From: Lytechinus pictus
Taxonomy: Eukaryota
NCBI RefSeq assembly: GCF_037042905.1
Contig: NC_087245.1
Location: 4,156,001 to 4,216,000 of the forward strand
Length of the DNA stretch: 60,000 nt
Direction: 5' to 3'
Made by a program: the position numbers and the translations under genes
Shown here: positions 10,336 through 58,485 of the stretch, piece by piece
How positions within the stretch are numbered: the stretch's first letter is position 1
Layout: each line of letters starts with the position of its first letter
The notes under the pieces: generated by a model
What the model was told of the DNA's origin: nothing
Database searches by the model: none
Seen by the model: only the letters and a program-made list of their open reading frames with translations

Positions 10336-10456
10336 GTTCATGCTCACTAAAAAGTGCTGAAAATAAAAAATCTTTATCCTGCGCTACGAGCTCGCATGAT
10401 TTTATTAGCTGAGATACGCATCCTCTCCGTGAAATCCAGCAAACAGTTCTTAGGTA

Positions 10457-11509: not shown

Positions 11510-11831
11510 TGGGCGTGGACTCTCGTTTCCAGGCCTGTAACGTCATTCTCGGCTCTCCAGAAGCGGACCAATCAGGAACTTGACTATTCGTGAGCTTATA
11601 TGTGTTGAATGGGAATGGCTTTGATAATCTTCAAATAAATGTCGGTGCGCCACTTTCGTTTTGTCGGAATTCACGACGGGAAACATACTAAGAGAGATAC
11701 TGATATATCCACCAATCATCGTGTGGACAGTATTGTGTTAATCTGAGCTAATCGCAGGCCTATTATCATCAATATCAACTGTATTCTATTTCGTGTTTTC
11801 ATTCAATCGCTGACAAAAGAAGACAATAAAG
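11510..11831 (+). promoter_or_regulatory. Candidate Pol II promoter and non-coding first exon
   Basis: GC/KLF box TGGGCGTGG (11510-11518), CRE-like TAACGTCA (11538-11545), CCAATCA (11568-11574), AT-rich TATA-like stretches at about 11597 and 11633, local CpG enrichment, and a splice donor AAG|GTAAAT at 11831/11832. Confidence 0.45.
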
Positions 11832-34497: not shown

Positions 34498-34800
34498 TTT
34501 CCGTATTTACTATACGGAGAAACTCTACAACACATCGATTCCTTTGAAATGCAAATAAAATCACAATGGACAGCTGAAGGGCTTTTGTCGAAAGTTGGTG
34601 GACTGGGACAGCTGATCGTCCGAAGATTTGCACCAGACGAACAATTGCAAATATGTCCTTGTCTAGAAACAAGAGATTCCGATGCTGTCCTAGTCCACCA
34701 ACTTTCGACAAAAGCCTCTCAGCTCTACATTGTGATTTGACTTGTATTTCCAAAGGAATTGGTGCATTGTAGAGAGTTTTTCCGTATAGTAAATGCGAAA
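34498..34800. mobile_element. Foldback (palindromic) element
   Basis: Arms of about 120 bp: TTTCCGTATTTACTATACGGAGAAACTCT...GCTTTTGTCGAAAGTTGGTGGACTGGGACAGC against GCTGTCCTAGTCCACCAACTTTCGACAAAAGC...TCCGTATAGTAAATGCGAAA, with a spacer of about 65 bp. Confidence 0.85.
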
Positions 34801-34904
34801 AGTCCAGATTGTCATTATGAAATAGCGAATTCACTGACAAAGCTATACGATAATTGAAAATTAATTATTATTATTACTATCGGCATCATTGTGGCCAAAA
34901 CGTC

Positions 34905-35490
34905 TTTAATATACCTAACTCTAAAATTACCCGACTTCAAAAACTTCAGAATTCAGCAGCTCGTATTGTTTCTCTGTCAAATAAACACGATCACATCACT
35001 CCTGTTCTTAAAGACCTCCATTGGTTGCCCATAAAGGATCGCATAGTTTTCAAAATTCTACTTTTAGTTCATCATAATTATCATCGATGGATCCGCACCC
35101 GATTACAACAAGTCTCTTATACACCACTATCAACCTGCACGCACACTGCGATCATCCCAATCTAAATCTAGTCTCTTGCATATCCCACTATTTAAAAAAA
35201 TCCTGGGGCGATCGAGCCTTTGCTCATGCCGGACCAGCCCTGTGGAATTCACTTCCACAGGAGCTGAAGAACTCAAACTCTGCAACATCCTTTAAGGGCA
35301 ACTTAAAATTGCATGTGTTCACCAGCAGGTACTAGGTTTGAAGTAATTTTTCCTCATTTTTAATTTACCCTTTCTTGTACTTTTCTTAGTTCTCTTTACT
35401 TTAATGTCTTGCTCTCTTCTAAGCGCCTTGAGCATTTAATCAAAATGGAAAAGACGCTATATAAATCATATGTATTATTATTATTATTTT
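34905..35490 (+). mobile_element. 3' fragment of an L2/CR1-group LINE, frameshifted
   Basis: RLQKLQNSAARIV...HITPVLKDLHWLPIKDRIVFKILL and, in another frame, GDRAFAHAGPALWNSLP...FK. The 3' end AAGCGCCTTGAG...GACGCTATATAAAT plus (ATT)n is typical of L2 elements. Confidence 0.9.
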
Positions 35491-35753
35491 TATTATTATG
35501 AAATATTGTGTGTATTTCATGCTGATCATTTGACGTTTTGACCCTACATCTTCTCGACCGATCAAGCCTTTTAATACAATATGATATTGCGCTTGTCTAT
35601 CGAGCATTTTCGTGGAAGAAAACGACAAATATTTACATGAGTATTTTTTTTGTATTGCGGGTCTATTGGAGGGAAAATTGGCTTCATGAAATTAATCCAA
35701 TCAAAATCCCCTGTATAAACGTAATACATTCATATCTAACACAGATTCATATC

Positions 35754-35954
35754 GAGGCCGTTTCATATACACATAGTGCTATTCGTAAATTAAGAGCGAC
35801 TTTAAGAACGACTGGTAATCTTTCTTACGCGCTAAATAATCACCAATTTACATGTAATGGTGAATATTATTTACCACAACAAACATGACAAAGGATCTAC
35901 AGTCGTTCTTGAAGTCACTCTTAACTTACGAACATATTTATGAAACTCCACCAG
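35754..35954. mobile_element. Hairpin MITE of about 200 bp, copy 1
   Basis: TTCGTAAATTAAGAGCGACTTTAAGAACGACTG is inverted relative to CAGTCGTTCTTGAAGTCACTCTTAACTTACGAA. Homologous to 59363-59553. Confidence 0.8.
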
Positions 35955-38526
35955 GTGTATGTATTGCTCTAATAGGTAGAGTAGGATGTGATTGGACAAA
36001 GTTTATTGATGGTCAAGGCCCACTCACACAAAGCTATATAGGGGCTAATAATTATGGTTGATTTTACGAAATATTCCAACCGTCAATGATCAATGGTTGA
36101 TCAGTATTAAGAAACCCTATTCTTGAACGTATTTTCTCTCTTATCTTTTTCCTTTTTTTATCATCATTTCCCCTTGCTCCTCTTTTTTTCTTTTATCTTT
36201 TATACTCTTCCTTTCTCCTTTTCTTCTTCATCTTCTCCCTCTCTCGTCCCCTTCCCCTTCTTCTTTAAGCTCTTTCCTAGCCTGATTTCCTTTCTCGTAT
36301 TGTGTATTTGTATTTGTGTTACAAGCTTTTGGTTTCAGGGAACTACGGCTTCTTCTGATAACAAATAATATGTCAAATATTTATATTTTTGTGAAAAATA
36401 ATTTTGTATAATTTATTGTGAAAAATTGATATTTTGATAAAAATGGAATGAAATTAATGTTTATTTGAATGAAATGGAATGGAAACATCTCTTAAAGAAG
36501 GAAATAAAAGGTGAGAATCGTTACAAGTTGAGTAAAGTAAAATAGTGATTCTTCCTATAGGGACCATCCCTTATTTGCCTGGAGTTGCTGCGTGTGTTTT
36601 ACACCATAGGCAGCATCCCCTAGAAATCAATTAGGTATGCTGAAAAGAAAAATTTTAACCAAAATCACTTTTATTTTTAGTGAATACATTTTTCCATTAA
36701 AATAAGGCAAAAAGTTTTGTTACAAAATTTTCTGATGCAATCTTGATAATTCTCTGCGGTAGAATATCATAAATAGTAAGCCGAAAGTACAACTTGTTTT
36801 CATAATTAACATTAACAAAAGTCGACACTTAAACCAGATTAACTAATAACTTCCATGATTTCAAATAAAATTTACATAATTCAATTTGTTGAACTATATA
36901 AAAAGTTTAGTTTCAAAGGGAAAGCACTTTAAATTACACAAAACTCATACAGAAAGAAATTCAAAGTTATTGTAATTGCATTCACCATAAAAGCCATACT
37001 GTAACTACTTTAAATCAAACGAAACGGAAATGTTTCTTTCCTGATTGTATTGAATTGAATTTGAGAGTAAAAGTGCAAACAGTGGCTTTACAAAATAAGT
37101 CAGAGTTAAATCTGTGGTAAGATCTAGATATGACTGTCTCTCTCTGTCTTTTTATCGCTCTTATGTGAGATGACATTTCCACGAAGGTGTGATATCCATT
37201 GACTAGGCCTACAGTACTTTTTTTTAACTTGTTATTCTCACCGATAATTAGAATTTACATATTGATCTTAGGAAAAGAACAGGATATTATTCATATTTTA
37301 TGGACAATTTGTGGCTTTTTATTATTTCTTTGATATGAATATACATTGTATACATTTTGGAGACGCTTTTAAAATGTGAGGTTTGTGATCGAATTCAAGT
37401 CTTGATTTGTCGCAAGTTTGTCTTTGCGTTTATAAGAGGACGTGAAGTGATCGCGGAACAATTTTACAAATGGGGGATTGGGACATAGCATGGTTATGTT
37501 TGTTTGTGTGCACGTTAACTAAATGTGGGCTAAGTCCCTGAGCTCCCGTTTTGCAGCTCCTGATATGTAGAGTCATTGGTAGAAGAAAGTTGTAATGGAA
37601 GGAAACTCTCCTCGTCTAAACGGTTGAATGATATCAACTTCATGCGTTTATTGATTCCCTGTTTACATAATGTCTGAACAGGTAGAGGCAAAATGTCAAA
37701 GATTAGAATTGTACCGGCAGGTAAATAACTCATTTCAGTAGCTTAACGACCAGATTTGTAGGTAGAAGAAATAAAACTCGATCAAATCAATGAAGATGTA
37801 GGGCAAATTCTTAGTTAATATAAATACCAGGGATTCTCACTTGTACCTGTTTCGGGAAAATTAATGCTTTCAGGTTTCGTGCATAGGCTGCTATAAAGGT
37901 ATGCTGAACATTAGACAACTTTCATACGAATAGTTCATTTCTTTAACGATATTTCTGTCTTCGCTTCCTTCCTCTTATTTGTTTTATCTTTTTTGAATCT
38001 TTAAATATCTCATATTCCTATGTTCTGCGTTTAAAAACTTCCTCTTTATTTCTAAAAACTTGTTACATTCATGAATTTTGTTGAACTTTTATCATCGGAA
38101 TATGGAAATAATATAGGCTTTAATAGTCCGTTGCACGTGCTGTAAGCAAAGTAAACATCAATTGTACTGTATATTTGCTGAAAGTATTCCCATCAGATAT
38201 TAGTTTATATAATGACATTTACCTTTTTTAACATTTGCTCTTTCCATTTCCCTCTCTCTTACTTTTTTATCGTCTTTGTCTTTTGCCTTGTATGACGCAT
38301 TATAATGTATATCATTTCTAATATATTTTTAAGACTAATCGTGTGTTTTGAGCAAACAATAAATAAAATAATATTCATTTTCAGTTACAGTGCTATGCTG
38401 ATAGTTCATTGTTGTGTTTCTCTATGTGAATTCGAACTCAGAAAAGATGAATTTTATTTACTCTCATTCTAAGTGGCATTGTTAGGCCTTCAAAGTCATT
38501 TTCACCAGTATGTTTATGTATGAACC

Positions 38527-39037
38527 TTAGAGACCAAATACATCTCAACAAAAGTTGTCTGGAATAAGTAGAGAAAACAAAATCAACTAACGTATCCACT
38601 GAAAACCTTATCAAAAGTCGGATGTCAGATCAAGAAATTCATGACAATTATGAAATTACATTTAATTTTGCAAAACGATTATGCACATATACTGGTTGGT
38701 ACGCAAATGAGAAAATCAGAGACGCCATCCACTTAATATAGGGAATATATTAATTTCATCTTATCTACAATGTAAAACAATACTTGATTCTTTCCTGAAC
38801 ATGTGAAATTGTTATGTCTTGTCACCCATTTTGATTCAAAGAAGAGGTTTCTTCGTGGCATCATCAGCGCTCTGATTTTCATATCACCCGCGTTTAACGA
38901 CTATTTTTTAAATAAAAATAAGCCATTTTCTTAATTGTTACGTCCAACTTTATGAAATCTTCATCATTATGCATGTTTGATTTTTTTTCTTCTATTTATT
39001 AAAATCAAATTTTGCTGTGGTGGTCTTGACCTTTTAA
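38527..39037. mobile_element. Old Kolobok-like MITE
   Basis: Right end GTGGTCTTGACCTT|TTAA with decayed inverted arms, and the same general layout as the 15814 element. Confidence 0.5.
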
Positions 39038-40765
39038 AGAAGTTATTGAGGCCACACACCTGTTATGGTCTGTAATAGGATCCAGATGGAACTAATTGAT
39101 ATCGCTTAACAGCCCTTACGAGCTGCCATATGATCTTCAAGAAGATTAAACGACGTCACAATCACGACAAAGCAAAGATTAGATCAAATAATACAGGAGC
39201 CCGAAGGTAAGAAGGGATGACAGCCAAGGAGACTGACAAATCCAGAACAATTACCAGTCCTATAACAAAAACTAAACAGAATAAATTTGGACGAAAGGGG
39301 GAAAATGAAAGGCTCATGAAACCAACAACTCTGTCTCTACATATCTGAAAGCATTAAACCGAACCAACGTCATAAAACGACTCACTCTCATTCCCTGCAA
39401 CTATATAGGTAAAATTGAGGATGAAGAACAAACATTGAAAAGAAAAAAATAAAGGAATAATACATAACTAATGGCCTTACCATTCAGCCACAGTAACACA
39501 CGAAGGGGATGACTATGTGTGTCGATGTTTTAAAAGGTCGTTTCCGCTAATGAATCATGCATAATTTCATAACAGTGTGTGAATGCACTATACATAAACT
39601 AATTCATGGAGAAATGATATGCAATTAGAATGAATTACTTTGATGCAATCAATCTTTCACGATCAGACGAATACCGATCACATCGCACGTAAAGTACATT
39701 TCAGGGATGAAAATATATTTTTAATAATCCATGTAATATGACAGAACGTCATTGTCGGCTGGCTGGTTATAGCGCTTAGCAAACAAACAAAAAATGCTTT
39801 TAAACACGTTTGAAGAATTTTTTTGATATACCATCAACTAAGAAAGATCATTTCACCCTTTCCGATATTTTGCATCATGTTTAATGAATGAATAAATAAA
39901 TATATCATATGATGATAAATATTTCCTATATAAAGAATGTAGTAAAGAGTATGCATTAATTTGTTAAAGTATCCGCAACGACACTATGGCACACATATTC
40001 GGTGTAAACCAAAGTACACTTCATTCATTGACCTTTTAAAATATCATTCTTGTGTAGAAGCAGATCTTAGTTATATCCGCCCCCACTAGTTTTCATCACC
40101 ATGAATGAAGTGATGGTTGTTCATGGGAAAGGATCTCTGGTTATCCTCCTTAGTCATTAAGATCGATCGAGTTTGTGATTCCAACCACGAAGCTATCTGT
40201 CAATCACCGGTATCTACTTACTACTGATTGGTAGCTGATAAGGACAGGTTGATTTTTCAAGAACACTTTGCGATCACAAATCAACACCAACGTAGTCATG
40301 TGGCGTCAAATGCATTTGTATTATGATTAACATTGTGGTCTAAATTTTAACAATATACATGTAGTCTAAAGTAGTGTACCCTTTGGTGACATTGATTATT
40401 GCGCTTGAAGGTGATTAGTTTTATTCATTTTGCAATTAACATAGTTATATACATCCTTCCTTTTGAGTTGTTTTTAGGAGAGACGTGAAGATGTGATAAA
40501 AGTGGGGCTGAAGTCAACTAATTATTTTTTTTTCTCAGAAGCGAGATCATCCCTAATCATTATATAGTTGGTGAGAATCGTAACCATAGACAATGTTTTA
40601 GTCTTGTTCTTCTGGGCGTTAGTGTATAATGTCCTGACCTTTATCAACTTGGTCCATATATTTACTTTTCGTGGATACTGTCATCGGTAACGTAACGTAA
40701 TAATTATAATGAGTCTTTTATCAAAGTAAATAAGTAAAACCCTTCTCCCATTCTTCTCTCTTTAT

Positions 40766-40766
40766 T

Positions 40767-40800
<34 letters not shown>

Positions 40801-40813
40801 GCTCTCTCTCTCT
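40766..40813. repeat. Compound (TC)n(AC)n(TC)n microsatellite
   Basis: Read directly from the sequence. Confidence 0.9.
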
Positions 40814-42113
40814 GATTGTTTATATAATGTGTATGGTTATGTCTTTAGGTGCAGCTATTAGCTCCAGTCGGTGTCTTTGTACCAATTACATTAATGTACA
40901 TGTCGAGTATTGTAATGAAAAGGCATTTTATCAAATACATTTTACAATAGCACAATGGACTCACCCATCTATTAATGCCCATCATCAATTTACTCATTAT
41001 ATTAAATCTGATTATTACTTCTATCTGAAGATGTCTAATTTAGAATATATTCTGTCTAAGGTCGGTTTTATACAGAACTTAAGATTAGGGTAATTTACTA
41101 CCATTATAGTAAGGTTGCCATTATGTTACGTTTTCATGGTTTCTTGCTTTCTCTATTCAATAAGGTGATTGAAAACCTGTTAAGCTGCAAGGCTTTTTTC
41201 AGCAAGTAAGAAAAATTAACTATTTGGCAAAGTAAAAGTAACAAGGATGCTACAAATCATTTAAAAAAAACGAAACGTTACATTAAACAGTGTTAGAAAA
41301 GATCAGGTATAGCAAAAACTTTAGGGGGAAAACGCTATAAAAACAAACAGAACATAAAATCTATAAACCACAATGACAAAATTACCATGTTCGTGATTCT
41401 AAAGAAAACGAGGCACAGATTAAAATCCCCCTTTCCGATTTCAAAATCACGTTTCTAATAAGATGCATTTTACCTTCCTGAACACTCCTAGTATTTCCCA
41501 TGAAGATAATGTACGGAAACAATGAAATGAGAGATAGGAAGAAGATACTGATTTTTCTCCCTGTATAAAAGCTTCCTTTAGCCAGCAGCATTTGCTCGAA
41601 GCTCACTCACTTAAATTCTAACCATTTATATCAATTAGAGGTGATGCATGTGCTATTAAAAGGAACCGATTTCCTCTTTCGTTGCCCAACTTGCCTCTAA
41701 ACTAATCGACATGGTTTCCTTCCCTTCCATACATTAAAGGGAATATCCAATTCTACTTCAACATTGAAACACAATGTTGTAAAAAGACGATTTGAAACTC
41801 CTTTAGAATAATAACAAGAACAATTTAAATCGTGGCCAAACACGAATCATGCTTGGGCTAGTTACATTTATTTCTCGCTTCAGAGGAAATGCGATCATTT
41901 CAAACAGATAAAAGTATAATTGAGAAAGAAGACACTAAACCACTTGTTAATGAAAATAGACCCAAACTCTTTTATTTTGTATTACCTAGTCATTTAAGTT
42001 ATTGATTCAATTTACTAATTCATTTAATTTTTATTCACTACCACTTTTATTTAATTAGGGGAGACTCATCAGTTGAAAATGCAATACTGAGGGCTGTTAC
42101 TGTTAGTATAGCC

Positions 42114-42398
42114 CACTGGCCGATCCAGGGGGGGGGGGGCAAAGCCGGCCCGTGCCGGCTTTTTGCCCCCTCCCGTGCCCCCTCTCCCTTACAGGCACAA
42201 TTAAAAATTTGTAATGTAAATTGCCGTTAAAGCAGAAGTGTGCCCCCCCTGAAAGTGATTTTTTTTTTTTTTGCTTTTAATTTTTTTTTGTGGACGAAAT
42301 AATTTTATATTTTGTTGAAAACTTCTTTTTTTTGCTTGTCAAATTTTTCCAGGGAATATGTCCCCCCCCCCCCTTGGGAAATCCTGGATCCGCCCCAG
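42114..42398. mobile_element. hAT-type MITE with a perfect 8-bp TSD
   Basis: TIRs CACTGGCCGATCCAGG and CCTGGATCCGCCCCAG. The TSD GTATAGCC is at 42106-42113 and 42399-42406. Confidence 0.9.
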
Positions 42399-43618
42399 GT
42401 ATAGCCAATAGCCCACTTTAAAGTATAAAACAGATTTGCAAGATGGTACGAAATAATTAACGAGGTAGCACATTATTTTAGTAACCAACCCCTTAGTAAC
42501 ACCCTATGATCGGCCCGACCTTTAATACATGCCTTTAAGAACCATCATCGATCGAAATAGAATGTTCTACCGCCAATACCTACACCTGATAACCATCCAT
42601 AGTTATAGTGCACTTGTCAATATCCATTCGTCACAAGTCTGAAGCACGAATAGTATCATATATGTGATCGGCCATACCGAAATGAGAGAGAAGTCGCAAA
42701 TCAAAATTCCTAGAAATTCGACGAACTAATAAAAAAGTCGAAATTTTGAAGGTTTTTGTTTTTTCATTTTCTGATTGTTCCATGTTTCATGATTACTCTG
42801 TGAAAAAAATGAGTGAATTTGATGACGGGAAAGTGATTAAAAAAAAGTTTTTCTGCGAGTGTTTTTTTCGGTCAGTTCGAAATTTTCTGATACTTGGCAC
42901 GCTCGACTTGATCGAATTTCGCTTCATACTAAGCTCCGCCCCTAGCAACGTACGCCATTGTTGATTGGCTATTCATTTAAACTAGAGTACAGCTGGCGGC
43001 GTCCGACCGGCCGCTCGATCGATCGATCGATCGGTTCAATGAGCTTCAAAAGAAAGATCAAAAGCATCGCTTTCAATACGTATTCTGAAATTGAAAAGGG
43101 GGCTTCTTGACAAAAGTTAACAAACGGGATTCAACTTCTAAAGGGTTATTTTTGTGATAATGGTAGTTGGTACCAGGCGGGGGCGTTAGCGATTGATTAA
43201 TAGGCCTACCTGATTTAGAGCGTATAGCTTGTCTATAATCGCGCAAAAAGTCATGCGTAAACGCAAAATTCATAACACGGTTTGTTGGCGAGGATTTATT
43301 TCATGAAACATAACATGGACATGTTGAAGATTCTCTTTATTATTTGCAAGTGATCGGGATGTTTCAAAGAGAAAACTTTATTTTCAAAAGAAATGGTTTA
43401 AAATCCATAAAAGTATTGTATGTTCGCGAATGTGGGTTAATGGATCTGCAGTATCATTAACAAAAGAAAAAAAGTTTATCATGAAAGCTTGGTGGGCTTC
43501 ATTATTTCCAATTATTTTTGCCTTCAATTTCTATCATGTTTGAATGAACGATAGAGAAAGAAATAACTGTCAGAAATAACAGGAAGTCAGAGACAGTAGA
43601 ATAATTATCAACTTCGAC

Positions 43619-43848
43619 AAGGCGCGGATCCAGGGGGGGGGGGGGGGGACATCCCCCCTTGAGAAGAAAAATAAAAAATTTGTAATGTAAAAATGCCATT
43701 GAAGCCGAGATATACCCCGGGATGTACCCCCCTTTTGAAATTGAAGACCTATTCTTTTTTTTTGCTTGAACATTTTTTGGCGGGTATACGAAATATCCTT
43801 AATTTATGGTTGAAAACCTTTTTTTGGAAAATCCTGGATCCGCCCCTG
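43619..43848. mobile_element. hAT-type MITE, same family as 42114-42398
   Basis: TIRs AAGGCGCGGATCCAGG and CCTGGATCCGCCCCTG. TSD ACTTCGAC/ACTTTGAC (7/8). Shares the internal AAAAATTTGTAATGTAAA with the 42114 copy. Confidence 0.85.
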
Positions 43849-44404
43849 ACTTTGACCAATGAAATATGGCCCGAAAGGACCATTCAGTAGGCCTGCATTT
43901 TTTTATTTTTGATAATGGTATACGGGTCTTACGATATTGATTGAAAATATTAGTCATTTAAAATACACCTATTGAAATTAACATTAACCTACAAGTCATT
44001 GTCATGTTGTCCCCTTCGACTTTGTCCAGATCTATTCTCTCTTTCCCTCTCTGTTATTCTCTTACCTTCAGTTCTTCTTTCGTCTTTCTTGTGTTTTATT
44101 TCTTCCTTTCTTCCCTTCTCCCCCTTTTCGTTTGCTCTTCTCATTCAGGCCATTCGGTCTCTTCTTTCTAAATCTCCCTCTTGTTCTTCCTCAACCCCTT
44201 TCACTTCTTTAATTCTAATTTGTTAATTCCTCTTTTGTTTGCCGTTCTAGTTCCCTTTCGATCTTCTCTTTTTTCTATGTCGATTATTTTCTCCTCCTTT
44301 CCTTCTTCTCTCTCCCCTTTGTTCACCCTCTACATTTTTTCCATATTTTCCCCCTTTTCGTTTTTTTTCGTTCTTTCCCAGTTTGATCTTCTCTTTTGTG
44401 TGTG

Positions 44405-45065
44405 TTAGCAAGTGCCATTTTTCGTACGCCAATTTTTACCCCCAAATGCCATCACGAACGTGTTTTGTACGTGCAGCGCCTTTCACACCCGAGAAGGACC
44501 CGTTTTATGCCGTTAGAAGGGGCCCCTTTGATTTCTTATACGGTGCCCTTTCTCTTATCAGTGCCCCTTTTTACCCAAGAAAGTGCCCCTTACCAACATG
44601 TTCTGTGCCCCTTTCACCTGGGAAGGACCATCAGTTTAGTCACGGTGTTAACGAGTGCCCCTTTGAAACAAGAAATAAAGCAATATACTTCTGAAGGAAA
44701 AAAGAATAATCATACGTGCATTAAGTTTCATCAGTCAGTTGAGTGGGTAGATGCGTACAGATGGGGGGACTCTTGCCTCCCCCCCAAAAAAAAAATCACA
44801 ACCAAGAAAAAAGAAAGAAAATATAAGAGAAGGAAAGAGAGATAATGATATTATTTCTGAATAGGCCTATAATTTATGTCAAAATCTAACACAAAATTTG
44901 ATTTTCGTTATAAAAATGTTCATTTTTGCTCGCTCGAAGCTTCGATACTGCAGCCAATTCAAAATTTTTCGCTCACCACACTACTGTAGATTAGTCTTTC
45001 TTTTTTAACGAGAAGGTGCCATTTTTCCCAGTGCCCCCCTTCAAATTCGCTCCACCGCGCCCCTG
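44405..45065. mobile_element. hAT-like MITE remnant with GTGCCC(C)TT repeats, containing a nested 8270-family copy (about 44750-44990)
   Basis: Repeated GTGCCC motifs and a right end CGCGCCCCTG. The nested segment GCGTACAGATGGGGGG...CCCCCCCAAAAAAA...GCTCGCTC resembles 8270-8519. Confidence 0.5.
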
Positions 45066-46129
45066 AAGTAAAGTGCTTTAAAGGGCTTGTGATTATAATT
45101 TTTAATCTATATAAAATTAAAGGCAATTAACGGGCCGTGGCAGAGAAATGAAAACCTAGGCTCCCCCTTCCCTTTCATTCCCGCCCGTGCTTCAGAGAGA
45201 TTTTAATAATTGTCTTTTAATTATATTTATCAAAGAGTTACTAACCGTCAAACGGGATGCGAAATCTGAGTTATAAGGTTGGTCAAGATTGGTGATAACG
45301 TAATAATGGCGAAATGAAAGCCAGGCACAAGACCTGTTCAAACAAAGGAGATCAGCGCTTTGTAACTTTGGTAAATTATCATTATTATCTAAAGCTCACA
45401 ATCCATCGTAGTTTGGGCGGCAAGGACCCCGTAACACAAAGGCTAATGATCAATTGTTAATACGAAATCGCGCCGGCGCTCGTCGGGCGACCGCCGGGTC
45501 TACCGTAGTCTAGGTTTTGTTACTCGCAACGTCCGGGCTTTTGTTATTTCAAAACGTGTGAAGTGTTGATCATCAACTCAGAAATGGCGTGTTCAGTGCG
45601 ATGTCGAAAGTCGAGACTGCATTTAAAGACGGATTATTGTAGCTTTTTAATCAGTTCTCGCACTGTTATCAGTGCTGGATCCGCCTATGAAAAAGTAAGA
45701 AAAACATACAAAGGGAAAACGGAAGGAAAGCAGGAAAGAAGAACATGTGAGAAAGAACAAATCATTCCAAAATACTATGCTAGCGTGATTAGTAAGAAAG
45801 GGAAATAAACAACAAAGATGACAAAATAGCAAACAACAGTGGGAAATTAAGGTAGAATGGAATGAGTCAAAAGTTCTATTGGAAAATTAAGAAAACAGAG
45901 AACTATAAACACAACCGGGCTTTTATTTCGTTTTATTTTTTTATTTTGAATTTATTATTATTATGTTTTTTTCTCTTTTTAGGGGGGTTCTCTCTCCTCC
46001 AAATTTAATCATTCAATCTTACAAAGACTTGTTGCACAAGGCATTTGCATGTTCTAATTCTTTATCTGTTACTGTGTTAGAATAAAATATTGGTTGTGTT
46101 TGATATCGATCCGAATCAGCATTCATGTT

Positions 46130-46300
46130 GGAGGTGCCGTGGCCGAGTGGTCTAAGGTGCCTGGCTATACATGGAGAGTCCGGGATCGATCCCCGCGGCT
46201 ACGACACCTTTGCTCTTATATCCTTCATTCAGATAAATGGAAATGCTGTTCGCATTATTTGTAACTAGGTGTGCACTTGTTTGTTTAAAAAAATTGAAAA
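46130..46300 (+). mobile_element. Degenerate tRNA-derived SINE (second family)
   Basis: A box TGGCCGAGTGGTCTAAGG, B-box-like GGGATCGATCCCC, a short body and an A-rich end. It does not form a complete cloverleaf. Confidence 0.7.
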
Positions 46301-48284
46301 GCGTATCTCCCCTAATCTATCCTCTGTTGGAAATAATTATAACGGGACTTTACTCAGGGTATCTCCTCGCTCTTTTTGTTGTAGAATTAAGACGTTTATG
46401 TCAAGGTTTTTTTTTTCTGCACCACTTTTAGAATCATTATAAACCTTTTTCTATTGCCTTTTTTCATTAATATACCTTTATGTATTTTGTACTAATTTCA
46501 AATCATTCCAATGCTGTAAATTATACCCCCCCCCCAAATGATCGGTAATAGATGATATTGAACAAATTATTCGCGTTTTTGTTCTCACTGTCTCAATCTA
46601 ACATAAGCATTAATAAAACATGAACACACAAGCCATTAGTAAAGGTGAGGTACAAATTATTTTGAAGGCCCATCTTACCATTATTTTTACAAGGGATAGT
46701 TTTTTTTTAACATGCGGTTAAAGTTCAGGTCATAATGACTCGCTTGATAGATTACATGTCAAGAGTCCGGGTGAGAGTAAACGCCATCGACATTCAAACA
46801 AGCCGATGGCACAATTGGAATACTCCCTCCTCCGTGGTTTTAGGTCCAACCTTTTATATCATGGCATTCTTTTTCTTTCATGAAGATTATTATAAAACCC
46901 CAGTTTAACCACTGATGTGTAGAAGATAATTGATTGACACGGAACGTTGTTTCGTCTTGCAGTCGCGCGTGACTTGCAAGTTGACTATTGTTCTCAAAGC
47001 AGCCTCCTCATTGGTTAATCGTTTCGCCTTTTTTGGCAAGCGGTTACTAGGGCATTTCGGTTAGCTCGGCGGTGGCAAAATAGATTTTTTCATGGAGCAG
47101 GGTCAAAACGGAAGTCAAACTTCAAAGGCGTTTTTCTCTTGATTTTTATTTTCAAGAGCCCAATTCTTCTTGCATTCTAAGGCTAATATCTCTACTAATA
47201 TTTACTTTTAAGGGTCGAGTGATATATCAAATTAAAGGTAAAGAAACGGGGAATAATAATCACTAAAAAAATTGGATTTGGAACATTCCGACTTGTCTCT
47301 CATTTCGGTGTGTCGAGTCACATATATCTTGATATGAGATGACAAGTCGAATGTCATGTAGGGGATTCGTGACGGCATGCGACTCTTTTATGGATATCGA
47401 TATCAATATCGATCCTTAAGCACTTCTCGTTTCTTGGTACGTTCACCTTTCGGGAATCACGTGATCAGTCAAATTTAAGCTGTGTTTCGCCCCGTTAGCC
47501 GATTATCTACAGTAGATATGAATGTATTTTCCCCCGATAAGCCATTAAGAACTCAATTTTACATTATAAGAAGTAGATAGAAAGATGCATTATATTAGCC
47601 TACATTTTTATATGGCCAATTTTGCTTGCTAGATCTATTTTATACCGCTTATAATTATAGAGAGCAAGAAAGGCTTTCACTTTCATACCCCCTTTCTTCT
47701 CAAAAGAGATGAAGACATCATAGGTATATTGATCTTAACTAGATAATCATATCAAATCTTTTCACAAGAGAATCTCAAAGAATTAAAGAGATTTACTCTG
47801 TACATAAACAGAAAACCATACTCATTTTAAAACGATATTTCATCCAAGTCAAAGTGAAATGTCAATAATTATGTTGTATGAAGAAAGTATGACTCAATCT
47901 TTTGCTTCGTTTATGGGTTCACGAATGTGTCAGTCAGTGACTGAAGTGTTTTCTTGCATTCTTCATGAAGATAAATTAGTTCGAAGCCTTAAGGGATTTG
48001 AAAAATTCATGCAATTCATCTGACCTGCATAGGCTGCATGTAAAGTCAATGGCCTATCTATTAATATTTTGCTGTTTTTTATAAACAGTATAAATTCACT
48101 GAAAATGGCGGTAGTATTTTTAGTTTGGTAAACAACGCTCATTTTTCTATCATTTCGAAGCGTATAATGTCATTATTTTCATAAAATAATTTTGTAAGTG
48201 ATCGACAGGAAAAAATTATTATTAGGATTACTGTGAGTGAGCTACTCTTTTCCTAGGAATGTTATCGTTTTATCTCTTCATACT

Positions 48285-48930
48285 CGGGGGCGGATCCAGC
48301 CTTCGCCAATAAGGGGGGGGGCGAAATATTTTTTACCCATATTTTTCCCGATCGGCCGCTGAAAGTTGATTTTTATTTGTTTCTTAGAAGGGGTAGTCCT
48401 AACAGTCACTTGTTAGCTTTATTCTCACAAAATTCTCACAATAAATAATAATCTCATAAATGAGCCCTAATTGACAAGTACGAGCGCGAAGAGCGAGCTA
48501 TTTTTTAAAAGGAAATTTCATGAATTTTGTCCTGAAAATTGAACATTCTGAGCAATGATTGTGATCGTAAACAAGATGTCTATGTAACTTAATAATCACT
48601 GCGAGTGCGAATATTAGTACATTGTTAGTACATTCTGGCCTGATGGGAAAACAGACAAAGAGGGTAGGTATATAACTAAACATTTCATGCGAGCGCGAAG
48701 CCCGAGCGAAAAAAAAACGAGATTTAGACCTAAAAATAGGACACACTATTCATGTTTCGTAAATCACAAAAAGGATGACTAATTGGGTATCTTCTTACAT
48801 TAATAATACAAGCGCGAAACGCGAGAAGGAAATTTTTGATATTCTGATATGAAACTGGATAATTCAAGCACGTTTTGAATAAAGAACAATTAAACTCCGT
48901 ATCTATTGTGTGCGCGTGTTTTGATACTTG
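48285..48930. mobile_element. Truncated hAT-like element with GCGAGCGCGAAGCGCGAGC-type internal repeats
   Basis: Left TIR CGGGGGCGGATCCAG. The motif recurs at about 48481, 48601, 48688 and 48811, and related fragments occur at about 10380 and 12050. Confidence 0.6.
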
Positions 48931-49855
48931 TCCGATGAACGTTCTTCGAGCAAGACGTATAAACCTCCGCTTGAAATGCGGATGCGATGAATGAAAGTGA
49001 CCCACTAGTTCCCCAAACTCATTATCTGGTTTATTTGCTAAATCCCCTTTCCCATCTACCTGATGAGTATCATTGCGTATCCGGCGGAAACCTATGGTAT
49101 AAGATTCACTCTTAAGATTATCTCAAATGTTCGTACCAATCATTCAAGCTTGAACTCATGAGGCAAGGCTTATGTCAAACCAAATTGGGAAGTTAGAGAA
49201 CCTCTCATGTTCATGAAACAACATCTATAGTACTTCAGTCACTTCAGAGGCATATCTCTGTCACAGAGGGGAAAAAAGCCAATTTAGCTCATAAGGCGCC
49301 ATGTTCTTGGATGTAAATGTCAATGATGAGATTAGTTACTATCTGTACCAGACATCTTTATTTTGATCAGGGTTTTTTTTTATTCGGAAAGGGGCGCAGT
49401 ATCAGACTCTCTGTTCATCCTAAAGCCAATTCCCTGTCTTGTGAATAAAAGATGTGTGATGTCTGTCAGGAATCTGCAAACGAGGAAGGGTTTACTTTGA
49501 AACTAAAAGTAAAAAACAAACCATCAGCCTTAATAGTCCCACCTTAAGTCCTCAAATACATATTTCTAGCCAGATGCATTACCCAAAATGCAACATTCTC
49601 TGCAGCGTAGCCTTTAGATATAGGCCCAGTTGAAGGATGAAACACTTAATCCACTACGCAGTACACTCATATCGCAATAATTATCTTAATATATCAAATA
49701 GCAAAACATGCATTCTGAATGAAAGGTAAATATAATCATTCAGTTTGATGCTCTTTTTCTATCAACACTGACTGTATAATACTGACCAATGGAAAAGCTT
49801 TGTGCCAAAGTATATAAGCTCCATGTATCCTGACTATATCCATGATTTTCTTCGC

Positions 49856-50106
<251 letters not shown>

Positions 50107-50902
50107 ATTCTTTCGGATACACTCTGTTATTGTTTCCACTGTCATGATTGTATAGGTACTGAAATGAAATGTAAATAATTGAAAATCACTTTCTTCTTTA
50201 AAGTGCAAAAAACAGTCGTTCTCCTATATACAGCAGCAAAACTAATTTGTTACCAGTACCCATTAAGTGCTCTGCTTCACTGCCTATATCTTTAAACGAA
50301 TTGTCCGTTAATTCCAAGCAAACTAATTTTCTACTGTTTTGTCATAGTATGTATAGGCATTGCATTGTGTATTTTAATTGTTTTTTTTTTTATAATTGTG
50401 ATTTTATAATGTTTGAATTGTGAATAATAGCATAGCTCCCTTGTAAAGCAGGCCTCTTGCTTGAATGGGACTACCCTGCTTTTTTAAAAGAAAACATGAA
50501 TAAATAAATAAATAAATAATTAAATTAAAAATAAATGAATAAATAAATAAATACATGTAGATAGATAAATAAATAAATATATATATAAACAAACACAAAC
50601 TTGATTAATCGCAGCAGCAGGAAATCTGCTCTGCAGCATAAGGACTATAGTAATCTCAAAATATGTTAATAAGAAGATATGAAATCTACTTTCGGCATAA
50701 CTTGAAATTCCGCAGATATAAGTCTTATGTCAGTCACTGGACCAAATGGTAGACGAAATTGTTGAATGTTGAAAACTATCACGTTCTTAATTGACCATGT
50801 CGTTATATTTCTATTTATATTTAATTCACAGGTCTCTCCCACGACTTGAGACGTTTAAATCACATCGTCTGAAAACAGACTATCTCCAACTAACTTGCCA
50901 AC

Positions 50903-51021
50903 ATGTATCATAAAACAACAACAGTTGCTCTAGCTGTTCTACTTATTGCCTTAGTCTCATTCTCAGATGCTACAAATTACTGGAGAATCGCAAAAGGCAG
51001 AAACGCTCGATACACAGCCAG
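50903..51021 (+). CDS. First coding exon of a putative neuropeptide/peptide-hormone precursor (exon begins at 50832)
   Basis: Acceptor TTAATTCACAG|50832, a 71-nt UTR, start context GCCAACATG, translation MYHKTTTVALAVLLIALVSFSDA-TNYWRIAKGRNARYTA (signal peptide with an S-x-A cleavage site), and a phase-2 donor CAG|GTAGGA. Confidence 0.8.
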
Positions 51022-51445
51022 GTAGGAGTTTTACATTAATTATTTCATTTACAGGGGCCTATACACATTGGTTGCTATGTACTGAACATGACGAGGTTGG
51101 TGTACAGTTTATGATATCTTTAGGAAACATGAAACGTATTCTGCTCGATCCCACTCATCGCAAATGATATCGTCCTTTTCCATGTCACCTTTTAGTGATC
51201 TGTAACCCGAGGTCATAGGTCGAATGTGATAGGTGACATCCTCTCAGTTTTAGCAATACGAAAATTTAGAGTATTAAATGTACAATCATCACATCTTGAA
51301 CATAAAGTATGTTTCTATTTACCATCAAATGATGTATTTGATTGTTGAATAGAAACACGAATTGCACAATATATGCATTCTTCCTGATATCTCAAGTGCA
51401 AATTACTTTAGAAATGATAAAGATATTTTTGATGTTTATATCTAG

Positions 51446-51568
51446 ATCACCAAGGCTGTACGACTCACTGAAGAACACACAGGTTAAAAGGTATGGTGGA
51501 ATTGAAGATGTGGAAGCGGCGGAGAATACCATTGATAATTGGCTAAGAGATTGGATCATCTCAAACAG
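51446..51568 (+). CDS. Second coding exon of the precursor, containing the KR dibasic site
   Basis: Acceptor TTTATATCTAG|, 123 nt, phase 2 to phase 2, open in the required frame (R)SPRLYDSLKNTQVKRYGGIEDVEAAENTIDNWLRDWIISN, donor CAG|GTAAAA. Confidence 0.75.
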
Positions 51569-53128
51569 GTAAAATACTCATTCAAGTCTAGTACTTTTAT
51601 ATCACTCAACTTAATATATTAAATAAACTAAAAAATATGATGTATGACACCTAACCTAAGTTGTCAAACAACATGTATATGCAGGGGCTGCGGAAAGAAA
51701 TTGGAAGTGCGTGGGGTATAGTATAGCCAGTACTAATACCGACATTTTGTGAGATATCATGCCACCAACAATTTCATTAATAACTAATGTAATATTAATC
51801 TTGATGCTTCATTTTCAAGGACGATGCCAGATTATATTGATGGGGGTAAGACTTGTTATGTCATTTTATTTCTTAATGGAAAGTATGGGTGTCGTAACTA
51901 CGACCAAGCTACGATGATACACCAACCTGGTGGACTGTACTTTAACGGATGATGATGATGATGAAGCTCTCCAATACCTTCTAGTTTTGGGGGCCATGTC
52001 TTTCCTTTTCCCTCTGACATTTGTGTTTTAAACACTCCTGGTAATTTTGTTTAACGCTTCATCTATAATTTCTGAAGTCTCGTGATAATGATTTTACTGT
52101 ATGCCCCAAAGCTACGTCAGTGTCCTTGTCCTTGAAATCAAAGTAAAGGTGCTTTCTTATTTTCGGATATATATTTAACAATTGTCATTATTGTCAAAAA
52201 CATTATTCTCTTTACCTTACATTGTTCTGCTGGAATTTAAAAACATTTCTTACGACAGTATTGCGTGATTTCTTTTAGAGCATCAATAAATCTCTCACAT
52301 TCCAATTTTCCATTAATTCTAGCCGTCAGGCAGTCATGTTTCCATTATTTTATATTCCGTCAGTTCAACTGAAAGATCTATGACATCGATTTTGTGATAG
52401 CTGCATCTCGATTCGATCAACACTGATATAAAACTATGCCAGAAAAAAATAAACCTTCTTTATTATTTAAACAGTAGCAAGAGAGAAAGAAAATGTGACG
52501 TACATGACATCATAAATAAATTTGTGCTTTGGTTGTAATGAAAGACAGTTTCATTGATTTTCTTTTATTTCATGGAAGCAATCATAACTATAGTATTGTT
52601 TTAGTTTGTTTGTTGTTGATATTTATCTTGTATTATGTTCGGTTGTCATAAGATAAGGTATATATTTCAATTTGCAGTAGTGGCATGATGATATTTGATT
52701 CAGTATTCCTTCAGTGATTATTATGATGTTTCAATTTAATCAAATTGTTTTGACATATTCTCTCCCGAGTCTGTGCCCTGTTTTGCTCCATTTTCAATTC
52801 CTCCATCTCATTCCCTCTATTGGTTTACAATAATGAGGACAGTGAAAAGATTTGTAAAATCTAGTTTATAGAATAAATCTGAGGATAAGAAGGATGATGT
52901 GCATTTTAATGTATACTTGTAACTAAAAATATTGAAGAACAGAGAATATGTATTATTCACGAAAGAAGGATCTTATTTTGTTAAAAGACTAAAGCATAGA
53001 CAGATCTTATAATATTATCTCAATGTATACATTAAGAGGATTCTTCATGAATACTAGATCTCATTTGTATCATAGCTTGAGGACATTAAATACAATCCAT
53101 TTTCACTTTCATTGTTTCAACTTAACAG

Positions 53129-53180
53129 GAATTTCATCAGAGGCACTCTTTTTGACGACACCTTCACAAATGAAGTATAA
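53129..53180 (+). CDS. Third coding exon of the precursor with the stop codon (exon continues to 53215)
   Basis: Strong acceptor TTTCATTGTTTCAACTTAACAG|. The phase-2 join gives (R)NFIRGTLFDDTFTNEV with TAA at 53178-53180. A consensus donor GAG|GTAAGT at 53215/53216 implies a further 3' UTR exon. Confidence 0.65.
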
Positions 53181-56100
53181 AGCCTTTCAATCTCCCATAT
53201 TGTCTTTTTCTTGAGGTAAGTGTCCAATCAGAAAAAAAGACACGTCGAGATTATCTAGGAATTTAGTCCAAAAAATCATGAAAGCTTGAAGCAATAAATT
53301 GTTAAGTGGGTTGTATTGTGAATTAAGAATGAAATATATACAGTAAATACAGTAGGGGACATATTAAAATTATTTGAAATGTCATGATGAAGCCCCATCT
53401 GATCAAGATGTTGATGACTCAATTTTTCCCCCGAGAAATAAGAAACTTTTTACTATTGATTTAAAATGGTTTTCCAGGAAAGAACAGCAAAGGCAAAGAC
53501 GACAATGCAATATAAAATGCCAACAAGGTTTCACTTTACGAGCAATACGTTCTGCTACCTTCTTCTTCTTTTTGTTTTAGAGAGTATTCACAATGGGTAT
53601 GATCCAATTTTCATTGTTGCACCCGTCCCCCTTCCTCTTTCCTTTTTCAGAATTATACGCCCGCTTTGTGACCTACCGAGTTCAAACAAACGTTTTACTT
53701 CAATAATCATGATAACGCATTTCCAGTAATGTGATTGACCACTCTAATAAAACGATTACAATCTCTCTGATATAAGGACAGTGATGAATGATGATCGTAA
53801 TTATTTCATATAATGATATCGTATTTAATGATATTACATGAGCGATCCGCTGTAGATATGACATCCTTAATGAAGCTGGAAAGGGAGAAACTTTTGAAAA
53901 GCCATTCGTTATTGCCAATTTGATGATTTTGTAGAGGTCCAGTCTGTATTAGGTTATTGATGGTATACTAATCAGGGGGATAAACTAATTATACAGTATT
54001 TTAGTAACAGAACTGAGAGTGTCATGTTTAATTACAATGATGGAGACGTTCGATACGGAAATCTGATAAAACATTTTAATCATGCACATTAACGATAATT
54101 GATGAGGGGTTGAATGTTAATTCATTGAATCTAATATAGGATAAGTGATGTTAGGAGTGAAGTCATGCAGGAATTATTAGAAATTTACCTCGATTATATT
54201 TTTATATGATCATAAATAGTTTCAAGTTTCAACCCCAATAGTGTATGCTGTATAAATGATAACTGGTGAAATCAAATTAGCGAAATTACTAAATTAATAA
54301 GATTGTACTTACATTATGTATCTTTGAACTGGCTTTCATTAGAAAGTGAATATTCAAGGGTGAATCTTAGTCAACTTGACAACTTATTTCATTAACTTTA
54401 TAATATGAATATTAACAAAATTGCGGCTTCTTTGAATAAACTCTTTGATGTTTTAGAAATTACGTGATATTAAATATGCTACGTTGGTATATGTTTTAAG
54501 GATGTCAAAATTTACCGTTCAATTGTCATTTACCCATGTATTTTTCTTGTAAATAGTAATTACTACTATAATGAGAATATGGTTATAATGTCATTGATTT
54601 AGGGTAAAATTATGATGTTATTCTGAAGATAGTATTGATTCACATTGTTATTTTACCATTGAAGTCTATTTATGTACTATTATTACTTTAATTCGAAAAA
54701 AAATCACGATTATATTTTATATAATAATTTTCTTTTTATTCAATTTTCTACTCTTTTTTTTTTATCTCACGTATGCTTCTGTTCTTCAATTGTCACTTTT
54801 CATTCGTTTTTTTTAATTATTTTTTTTCTTTTATCATCATTTTCTTAAAACTAAAATAAATCAAATACTGGTATCTCTTTTTTTCTCGTCTATTTTGTTT
54901 GTCAAATTTAGTCCTGAGACCAACCAGTCTATGCCTGTTTTCCCAAATGCCACCGTGGTTCATGACGCTCCCTTTTTTCCTCAAAGATGAAGGGCGACCC
55001 CACTCACCATATATACATGTAGTTCATCACTTCTTCCAAAGCCAGGAAATATTATATTACGTTTGCATCATACATACTAAGTATTCATGGTTAAAAGTTG
55101 CATTTTACAGAATAAATGATCTTTTTGAAAACATGTGCTCACTCAAATAATGTAATTTGAAACATGCATGATTTAGCGCAAAGTAATAATATTTTTATCA
55201 ACTATAATTTTATGTACACTGACAATCCCATTTCGTTCAAAATGTTTGTTATTGTCATTACAATGTAATTTTACTTATACATAGTTTAGATACTGAAGAC
55301 CAACGCCTTTGTCTATAACTTTTTTTTTATATCAGTGATCGTTTATTTACCAGTTGGTTTTGATAATTTTTATTTTCCGTACAAAATATATTTAAAAGAA
55401 ACTTGACTGTTTATATTAAGGTCGATCATTCAATCTTTCAACTCATATGTTCAGATATGTATGGCTGATATACCACCAGTCTGTGATGGGCTTAGTAATA
55501 TCATATATGAAGCTTTCCAGAGACCAAGCTCGTGAATTTGAAATTATGTGTTGTGATTAGTTAATACCCTAAAAACGACGAAAGACAATATAGTTCTGCT
55601 ACGACATTGGGTAATATTCTGAGGTATGAAGGTGGAACTTATTATGATATTAATCCACTGATGCATTTGATTGTACTCATATGTGATAAGTGTCAAGGTA
55701 TACATGGTATCGCAGCCCTAAGCGTACCCCTATAGCGTGAAATGTTGATTGGATAAGAAAGATTACACATTCATGATTAGGAGTGTGGCTGTTCTGTTGA
55801 GTAAGTATAGCATACCATTATCTCTGATTACATTTTGATATTACAATTAAAAAAACACTTCATCTGAGATTAATCTGTACTCAGTTGAATATTTGAATGA
55901 ATTAATTATGGAAATTACAATCGATGCGTTACACATTAAAACTTAGGCAAAACTTATTTGGAGAATGCGTAGTTTGAAATATTCATAGAAGGACATTAAA
56001 GAAATTATAGAAAAGGGTAATATCATTCTCAAATCAAATAATGGGGATATGTATCAGCCTCAGTGAACAGAGGATTTGTTTATTTTTTTAAAATCATAAT

Positions 56101-57807
56101 CAGTCCTATAAGTTGGTTGGATATTGAGACTTCATAAAAAATTATTTCAAACCCTATATAATGTTCATGTACATGGATTCTAACGCCCTATATTGTCACT
56201 CGGCCTTACACCCAATTGATCTGACCCCATTCTCCATTGCCCCCCCCCCCCATTCCCGCTGCCACGCCCCCGTTCTCCTCCCCTTTCCCTCACACACTTC
56301 CTATCAATTTATTACCACTTCAAACTTCTTGATCTTTGATAATTGATTTCCTCTGCCAAGTACATTGCCATTACCCTAAGGCGAATCTTTGAAAAGGAGA
56401 ACCTAATTGTCTCGATGGTCATTCTAGAGGCAAAACACAAATTATGCGGTTGTATTCACACGCATATGAAAGGTTTGCACCCATCTTTGACTGGGTTATA
56501 TGCCTTCTAACTGGTTACCCCACCCCCATCCCACTCCGCTCTCTGCATCAAATTCACGATGAAAAAAAAACCTGACTCTCTTGGAGTTTAATTTTAACAT
56601 TCACTAATGATCTATTTTACTGTAACAAAACTTAAAAAATTGTTACATTTTTTATATGGGAACAAAACTAATTTGATCACTTGAAATTGTATTTATAATG
56701 TTTGTATCCAGGATACACCGAATGTGTTTGATAAGACATATATGTTTTAAGTGCAATGATTTTCTTCAAGTAATTTTTGGACATATTCATATCAGACGAG
56801 TCCCTGCATTGTAATAGATGATCATAAGGAAGAAGAATTCGAGCCATTTTTTGAATTATTATAAAGGATAGATATAATATAGAAGTGACTCTAAAAATAT
56901 TTTGCTTGATCAAATTCCTAATATACTGAATACGAAGTTTAGTTATGTAAGGTTAAATAACGAATGTAATGAGGGCGTGTGCTCTTATGATAACATTTCA
57001 ATCGCACTTAATCATATTAATATAAGATAATATACATGTAGATTACATTGATTAAATTCATAACGAAGAAATTGTTTATATCATTTATTTGAAATTGCCG
57101 ACATTGATATCTTAAAGAGATCTTAGTAATCATTATACTTTTCAAATTCTAATGTATTGTACAAGAATAATTATTGCCATTGCTGAAATAATGTAGAAGC
57201 ACACAATATTTATCCAGCGCCACCTTATCCATGTTTGTATTATCCTTTTAAGAGTAGTGTGTAATGTATAGTTGATATAATGTGTAGATTTAACAAATAA
57301 CTCAAGATTATTAATGCTGTTTTATTCATCTTGTATTATAGTATGTAAATAGAAATATTTTCCTTTGCTTCCTCTTATAAATGGAATGATTACTTATTGA
57401 ATATTCTGAATATTGTTCATGAATAATGTTTCCTCGTCAAACAGTGTTATATAGGTTGTAGATCGAGAAAATTCTTAATTGAATTGATATTCGAATGCAT
57501 TGTATATATTTGTGTGATCATTTTCTGGGATTATAATATTCGGATTATCAAGCAAGTATTAAACACTTTAACTGCTTAAATAGAAAATCAATCCTCGCTT
57601 TCAAGGCGGTATGACGAGTATATATTAACATGATAATAGTGAAGGAGAAAGACATTAATCATGATTCATTTCACGTGAAGATGTTAAAACTACTATCATG
57701 TCACAAAATATTGTTTGATTTTTTATTTCACGTCATGTCATGTTTTGAAAACACGGTCGATAGATCTCTATCCTCATCAGCCACCCCATGGCATGAGCAT
57801 CAGGACG

Positions 57808-58485
57808 ATCACCACCGCCACTACCAACACCACCATCACCACCACTACCAACACCATCACCACCACTACCACCGCCACTACCAACACCACCATCACCACC
57901 ACTACCAACACCACCATCACCACCACTACCAACACCACCATCACCACCACTACCTTCACCACCATCACCACCATCACTACCACTACCAACACCACCATCA
58001 CCACCACTACCAACACCACCATCACCACCACTACCAACACCACCATCACCACCACTACCAACACCACCATCACCACCACTACCAACACCACCATCACCAC
58101 CACTACCAACACCACCATCACCACCACTACCAACACCACCATCACCACCACTACCAACACCACCATCACCACCACTACCAACACCACCATCACCACCACT
58201 ACCACCGCCACCACCAACACCACCATCACCTCCACTACCTTCACCACCATCACCACCACTACCACCGCCACTACCAACACCACCATCACCACCACTACCA
58301 ACACCATCATCACCACCACTACCACCGCCACTACCAACACCACCATCACCATCACCACCATTGCCACCACCACCAATACCATAACACTATCACCGCCACC
58401 ACCATCATCACCCGTACAACCTCCACCACCGTTACCACCAACACCACCATAACTACCACTACAATCACCACCATCGCCAACACCA
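57808..58485. repeat. 24-bp minisatellite CAACACCACCATCACCACCACTAC built on (CAC)n
   Basis: A homogeneous core at about 57985-58200 with degenerate flanks. It is stop-free in several frames. Confidence 0.95.

Follow-up and report, generated by a model that had tools for sequence, protein, structure and literature searches.

A 60,000-nt stretch of the Lytechinus pictus genome (NCBI RefSeq assembly GCF_037042905.1, contig NC_087245.1, positions 4,156,001 to 4,216,000 of the forward strand; hereafter the window, with coordinates counted from its first letter) carries a genuine five-exon, single-copy gene on the + strand (~34133–55135), the mRNA of which (~0.7 kb) contains a 97-codon open reading frame (ORF) and is present in spliced form in two related sea-urchin species. 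The gene probably encodes a lineage-restricted secreted peptide precursor. A preliminary description of this DNA, made without database searches, had placed a 97-residue secreted prepropeptide at 50832..53215, proposed it as a candidate neuropeptide system and called the gene hidden; genes that are spliced escape a scan for ORFs, and the word means no more than that.

Gene structure and transcription

The coding frame is assembled from three exons (50903–51021, 51446–51568 and 53129–53215) joining in phase 2/2 at GT–AG sites, a sequence arrangement that the preliminary description had given correctly. Its ATG at 50903 has an A at −3, in agreement with the good start context noted earlier, with an in-frame stop 12 nt upstream (50891–50893), and the frame closes with TAA at 53178–53180. 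The donors following 51021 and 51568 read AG/GTAGGA and CAG/GTAAAA, the acceptors preceding 51446 and 53129 end in tatatctag and acttaacag, and the donor following 53215 (GAG/GTAAGT) is strong. With exons and introns located from sequence and RNA together, the gene is laid out as follows:

34133–34190, + strand: exon 1, non-coding, of minimum extent at the 5′ end; joined to 50832 in X21 reads
34191–50831, + strand: intron 1, 16.6 kb, GT..AG, from X21 reads, the string match in the window and the donor
50832–51021, + strand: exon 2, 71 nt of 5′ untranslated region (UTR), then the ATG at 50903; ends in phase 2
51446–51568, + strand: exon 3, residues 40–80, from sequence and RNA junctions
53129–53215, + strand: exon 4, the last 16 full codons, TAA and 35 nt of 3′ UTR, from sequence and RNA junctions
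54912–55135, + strand: exon 5, 3′ UTR, with AATAAA at 55111–55116; the 3′ end is approximate

Four public runs were compared with window positions 50600–57700: X21 (stranded RNA, organism A), X5 (a 503-nt contig) and X24 (RNA), both from organism B, and X1, the kind of which was guessed as RNA. The two internal junctions predicted beforehand were recovered exactly in X21, X5 and X24, 51021/51446 in 4 reads, 1 contig and 4 reads, respectively, and 51568/53129 in 10 reads, 1 contig and 2 reads. The donor lying 35 nt beyond the stop, named earlier as the next one, is in fact used, joining 53215 to 54912 (X21, 9 reads; X5, 1 contig; X24, 4 reads), so that the exon model is exact at all three junctions, and every RNA-supported junction is bounded by GT..AG. 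The first mate of X21 exonic reads is on the minus strand in every case and on the plus strand in none, and the RNA is assigned to the + strand because of these mates and the orientation of the GT..AG boundaries. Depth in X21 is at most 0.1 just upstream of 50832 and zero in the introns, except at a repeat (~51905–51965) described below. Spliced mRNA is thus present in both species, with its strand and all four introns established, and that the transcript is real is practically beyond doubt.

The interval first proposed for the gene holds its inner exons and misses both ends, namely the 5′ exon 16.6 kb upstream and the 3′ UTR exon from 54912. Its first position, 50832, coincides with a real acceptor, to which an upstream exon is joined: in four X21 reads a string ending in GCTACAGTTT is spliced to the 50831/50832 boundary, and GCTACAGTTT occurs once in the 60-kb window (34167–34189; 0 expected), shortly before a donor reading G/GTAAGA after 34190. 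Fifty-eight nucleotides of exon 1 are present in the organism-B contig, placing the exon start at or before 34133. Two ATGs in exon 1 (34161 and 34178) open upstream ORFs (uORFs) of 15 and 17 codons, both of which close before the main ATG. The ORFs of at least 75 residues in intron 1 gave no Pfam domain. At the other end, X21 depth falls from 7.6 (bin 54866–55102) to 0.18 (bin 55103–55339), marking the approximate end of exon 5.

Some RNA lies outside this model. In X21, + strand RNA continues past the AATAAA of exon 5 at 55472–56550 (depth 1–3.5), with organism-B contigs at 55472–55988 that differ from the window by ~7% and carry small indels. No junction into 55472–56550 is among those listed, and this RNA could be a long 3′ UTR form or a separate non-coding transcript. 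Run X1 has zero depth over all exons and holds repeat and intron pieces only; its contigs over intron 4 (53507–54162) probably mean that the run contains DNA or unspliced RNA. X1 and X5 were taken from a listing of 20 contig sets that shared 5–13% of the words searched for and in which no RNA run was named as a holder; the evidence given here draws on no other contig set of that listing. A role of the transcript as host of a known small nucleolar RNA or microRNA was considered and dropped, neither Rfam nor tRNA scanning of the window having given a hit.

The predicted protein, its conservation and the search for relatives

Residues 1–23, encoded at 50903–50971 in exon 2 ahead of residues 24–39, read as a signal peptide by classical rules of thumb: K4 precedes a 16-residue hydrophobic core (residues 5–20; top Kyte-Doolittle 15-residue window 2.55, residues 6–20), and S-D-A before the predicted cut fits the −3/−1 rule. 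The typical signal peptide of the preliminary description therefore agrees with these rules (K4, 16-residue core, S-D-A), and secretion of the product is likely. Its further account of a basic half, a KR site, an acidic half and no cysteines also stood, with net charges of +8 for residues 24–55 (32 residues, K-R at the end) and −6 for residues 56–97 (42 residues), K54-R55 between them, and no cysteine and one proline in the 97-residue protein. The codons of K54-R55 lie at 51486–51491 in exon 3 and the acidic C-terminal peptide begins at 51492. Other basic residues in convertase-type spacing occupy positions 31, 33, 36, 40, 43 and 81. Amphipathic windows extend across residues 57–88 (hydrophobic moment 0.5–0.6 over 18 residues), and AlphaFold2, given just the 40 exon-3 residues and no alignment, predicted helices at 2–15 and 19–39 (mean predicted local distance difference test, pLDDT, 74), the break between them being Y-G-G, right after K-R.

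No frame in the mRNA model is longer than the 97-codon one. When the 682-nt model was shuffled 5000 times with its dinucleotides preserved, a closed ATG-initiated ORF of at least 97 codons arose in 80 cases. Between the two species, the coding part changes chiefly at synonymous sites. Of 384 exon letters compared, 10 are not the same in the organism-B contig as in the window; among the differences listed, six are in the coding sequence (CDS), four of them synonymous (V8, L14, R55 and G58) and two conservative (E60D and L88I). For these, synonymous and non-synonymous divergence (dS and dN) are ~0.060 and ~0.009, with P = 0.028 for at least four of six being synonymous, a value that becomes 0.13 if three further differences in the CDS exons are all non-synonymous. 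Non-coding transcribed DNA downstream (55602–55988) differs at 26 of 354 letters, plus gaps, which is above the exon rate. Between X21 and the window, no CDS difference is among those listed and several lie in the 3′ UTR. Overall, it is likely that the frame is protein-coding.

The competing possibility, that the RNA is non-coding or weakly translated and the 97-codon frame a chance ORF, is improbable. The ORF length attained by 1.6% of shuffles, the two uORFs before the ATG, the lack of homologues in the searches described below and the continuation of + strand transcription downstream (55.4–56.5 kb) would all suit it; the good ATG context right after an in-frame stop, with a signal-peptide-like opening, the synonymous excess between species and the difference in divergence between exons (10/384) and downstream transcribed DNA (26/354) argue the other way.

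Searches for relatives with Pfam, the Protein Data Bank (PDB), protein libraries and the ESM Atlas used single-exon peptides of 39–40 residues as queries and are of low sensitivity. Nothing reached the Pfam cut-off with the exon peptides, and DUF2542 (14.6 bits) and VipB_2 (12.4 bits), seen at E up to 10, were treated as sub-threshold noise. The best PDB match, MS2 phage coat protein (E 0.78), was taken as chance, and the best Atlas score (0.82, bacterial hypothetical proteins) was dismissed, as shuffled proteins often reach higher. The 40-residue exon-3 peptide had no match among 1.84 billion representative proteins or among the longer proteins of a word-indexed library. As a control, the reverse-transcriptase ORF of a long interspersed nuclear element (LINE) in the window matched four proteins, all labelled 'ena' and none from NCBI or UniRef; because this shows that these libraries contain few echinoderm proteins, the library negatives say little about echinoderm orthologues. 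In the 811.7-Mb assembly of the same genome, the peptides of both larger coding exons match only themselves, and the gene is therefore single-copy. One extra match for the exon-2 peptide (C3:29185642, E 5.8) lacks an ATG ahead of its hydrophobic stretch and was discarded as chance.

The preliminary description recognised no family for the protein, and no described precursor was matched here either. Four motifs of 8–9 letters from the protein do not occur in ~8.4 million searchable full texts, and none of KRYGG, WLRDW, NWLR, NFIRG and DSLKN turned up in the available supplements to three papers on echinoderm precursors (PMC5627052, PMC9793003 and PMC6586643). In the same supplements N-Y-W-R is found in the crinoid AN peptide precursor only, at positions 2–5 of the unit.

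Comparison with known precursors and proposed processing

The AN system (SpANPP, ArANPP, AjANPP and crinoid PCNP1) is the nearest known to the 97-residue protein. As described in the available parts of PMC6224346 and PMC9793003, AN peptides are found only in echinoderms and are made in identified sea-urchin larval neurons, their function and receptor being unknown; those of PMC6209648 and PMC6224346 print no AN peptide sequence. A degenerate pattern for AN units gave 101 matches in the genome (108 for a control pattern), of which seven cluster on contig 11 with a spacing of 81–96 nt (six of the seven exactly 96 nt). They identify the genome's own AN precursor (G000:C11:24993120-24994091; ORF L007:721-1692), a single open frame of 307 residues from Met with nine units. 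Six of these units are 32 residues long, made up of a peptide starting A-N-Y-F-R, G-K-R, a 16-residue acidic spacer and K-R.

The likeness lies at the predicted mature start, T-N-Y-W-R, which compares with A-N-Y-F-R in the same genome and A-N-Y-W-R in a crinoid. The basic part of the protein is 32 residues ending in KR, the length of six of the nine AN units, and the order of an AN-type start, basic residues and acidic sequence is shared. The differences are in organisation: the protein has one unit, whereas the AN precursor here has nine, each after KR; its unit starts with Thr and follows the signal peptide, whereas AN units start with Ala or Gly after a dibasic site; it has no G-K-R after the peptide; and its CDS is cut by two introns, whereas the AN precursor is one open frame. 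A search of the genome with the exon peptide did not recover the AN gene.

Alignment tests, in which the protein was shuffled and compared with the AN units of its own genome, locate the resemblance. Residues 24–28 score as well against A-N-Y-F-R in 11 of 20000 shuffles, and in-register alignment of the whole unit is matched by 126 of 20000 without gaps and by 9 of 5000 with gaps, a score that is unusual because of the first five residues alone. An AN-unit profile gives the mature protein 4.5 bits, a value that 37 of 5000 shuffles attain, and the first 12 residues after KR resemble the start of an AN spacer (x-x-x-I-E-D-V), a likeness equalled by 136 of 5000. All these counts overstate the support because the family was picked, in a screen of many families, via the same N-terminal four-letter match. 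AN homology past the first five residues was rejected (residues 6–30: 1446/5000 ungapped, 754/5000 gapped), and local alignments with the AN precursor score no better than chance (N-terminal half, 596/3000; mature protein, 687/3000; C-terminal half, 344/3000). The tests thus leave a resemblance to the AN peptide start where the mature N-terminus is predicted, and homology to AN is without support.

Other systems share parts of the layout. A signal peptide with dibasic-bounded peptides is the published criterion by which echinoderm neuropeptide precursors are nominated, according to the available parts of PMC9793003 and PMC4772807, and two of the features applied operationally in the former, a signal peptide (here by rule) and candidate peptides bounded by mono- or dibasic sites, are both found in the 97-residue protein. 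Orphan echinoderm candidates such as Arnp21 of Asterias rubens and PCNP2-20 of crinoids fall in a similar size class (83–157 residues; PMC4772807, from the parts available) and, as far as these sources are accessible, likewise have a signal peptide, one or a few dibasic sites and no outside relatives, and were nominated from sequence (PMC4772807, PMC9793003). No sequence similarity was seen between them and the protein, and most carry a Gly amidation signal or cysteines, neither of which accompanies its KR site.

The Y-G-G after K-R also brought the opioid-type precursors into consideration. In these, Y-G-G-F stands right after a dibasic site and the precursor has an N-terminal region that is cysteine-rich. 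Here, the fourth residue is Ile instead of Phe and there are no cysteines, so this class was rejected and the tripeptide taken as chance.

A processed signalling-peptide precursor is the reading proposed here, tentatively and at somewhat less than an even chance. Residues 1–23 would be cleaved as a signal peptide, so that the product enters the secretory pathway, and an enzyme of prohormone-convertase type would then cut after K54-R55, in the predicted break between the two helices, with further cuts possible at R-N-A-R36, R-S-P-R43 or G32-R33. Two peptides would result, the N-terminal one basic and the C-terminal one, of 42 residues, acidic, amphipathic and helical, and use of G32-R33 would give an amidated octapeptide starting T-N-Y-W-R. 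Once released, the peptides may act as extracellular signals of neuropeptide or hormone type. In such precursors, stretches of acidic sequence are usually interpreted as spacers, and for this reason, together with its AN-like start, the N-terminal peptide would be the likelier active part. A more specific version is a two-product echinoid system, in which a diverged, single-copy peptide of AN type (T-N-Y-W-R, possibly the amidated octapeptide released at G32-R33) is accompanied by the 42-residue acidic amphipathic helix, freed at K54-R55, as a second ligand; in length and helicity the latter is, we assume, comparable to the ligands that secretin-class receptors bind. This version is speculative and, as a whole, unlikely. 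What speaks for a neuropeptide system is the generic architecture of the precursor and the five-residue resemblance, which make it plausible.

Several points weigh against the signalling-precursor reading. Some concern the protein itself: the ORF-length test (1.6%) is modest, the two uORFs stand ahead of the main ATG, the synonymous excess depends on the three further exon differences as given above, the signal-peptide call is a classical-rule reading and not predictor output, and the AlphaFold2 model, with its mean pLDDT of 74, is limited to the 40 residues of one exon and was made without an alignment. Others concern processing and kinship. The residue before K54-R55 is Val, with no Gly, and there is hence no amidation signal there; the sole possible one, G32-R33, is monobasic; no relative was found in the searches made, which leaves no conserved-peptide signature across classes; and, on the AN side, local alignments are at chance, homology fails beyond five residues, and the family was examined only after the four-letter match, with inflated shuffle counts as a result. 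Finally, the same layout is compatible with the precursor of a host-defence peptide or with a small protein that is secreted and never cut.

The last of these would be a charge-complementary helical hairpin in which the whole 74-residue protein acts without an internal cut, for example as a binding or matrix factor of the embryo or adult. It is unlikely, with evidence on either side. The two helices predicted around the Y-G-G break, the near-cancelling charges (+8 and −6) and the absence of an amidation signal at KR would fit a hairpin, as would the equal conservation of both halves (listed non-synonymous changes: none in the N-terminal half, two conservative ones in the C-terminal half); an exposed loop that bears KR in a secretory protein is, however, a typical convertase site, the fold model reaches only the 40 residues noted above, and a structural role would have to be assumed without a fold or family match. 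Cleavage also features in a host-defence (antimicrobial) precursor, where a cationic peptide (residues 24–53, ~+7) would be masked by the anionic propiece until it is released at KR. Some antimicrobial peptides of marine invertebrates and fish are made in this way, as a signal, a cationic peptide, a cleavage site and an anionic propiece, and the protein has the same order of parts and an anionic extension of similar absolute charge (+8 and −6); a single-copy, lineage-restricted gene with no relatives found would also fit. Its cationic part, however, is poorly hydrophobic (mean Eisenberg H −0.3 to −0.9 in its amphipathic windows) and has a proline, features in which it departs from typical helical membrane-active peptides, and its conservation looks purifying instead of diversifying, which makes a defence role distinctly unlikely. 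Very unlikely is a single-pass membrane microprotein with residues 5–20 as an uncleaved signal anchor: the hydrophobic stretch is 16 residues and its C-terminal flank (R28, K31 and R33) is as positive as its N-terminal one (K4 and the amino terminus), but 16 residues are short for a membrane span, and the small residues at −3/−1 (S-D-A) and a very short n-region are typical of cleaved signal peptides.

Other features of the window, and implications

Intron 3 contains a short repeat that is not in the mRNA of the gene:

51905–51965, strand not assigned: dispersed repeat of ~60 bp in intron 3, containing a GATGATGATGATGA run

Reads of all four runs pile up on it, with flanking sequences that differ from read to read on both sides. 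The genome holds 196 candidate copies, and the 40 of these 196 that were scored are 91–100% identical and lie on many contigs; it is a short, very well conserved, transcribed dispersed element. Within 1 kb 5′ of the exon-2 acceptor are an (AT)n microsatellite (49859–50106, 248 bp) and an (AATA)n tract (50499–50593, 95 bp). Beyond the gene, an organism-B contig covers 57034–57551 with 24 mismatches and 29 gap letters, and a tandem array of 28 copies with a period of 24 (CACCACCACTACCAACACCACCAT) occupies 57813–58483, open in several frames as His-, Thr- or Pro-rich ORFs of up to 309 residues. In the 5′ part of the window, a 299-residue open frame on the + strand (24035–24931) carries zf-RVT, the zinc-binding domain of reverse transcriptases (E 4.8e-09), and is taken as a LINE fragment because of its 73% identity with the C-terminal portion of a 1252-residue endonuclease/reverse-transcriptase protein. 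Local GC rises to as much as 0.43 at 10001–12000, with a GC skew of +0.24, and inside this rise the minus strand has a repetitive Pro/Thr/Ser-rich open frame (10475–10852).

Were the product just one of many lineage-restricted small secreted proteins, the gene would be ordinary. If the reading as a signalling-peptide precursor is true, a second gene would be known whose peptide starts in an AN-like way, and there would be an extra candidate for the list of echinoderm neuropeptides, which is used to trace the evolution of peptide signalling in deuterostomes.

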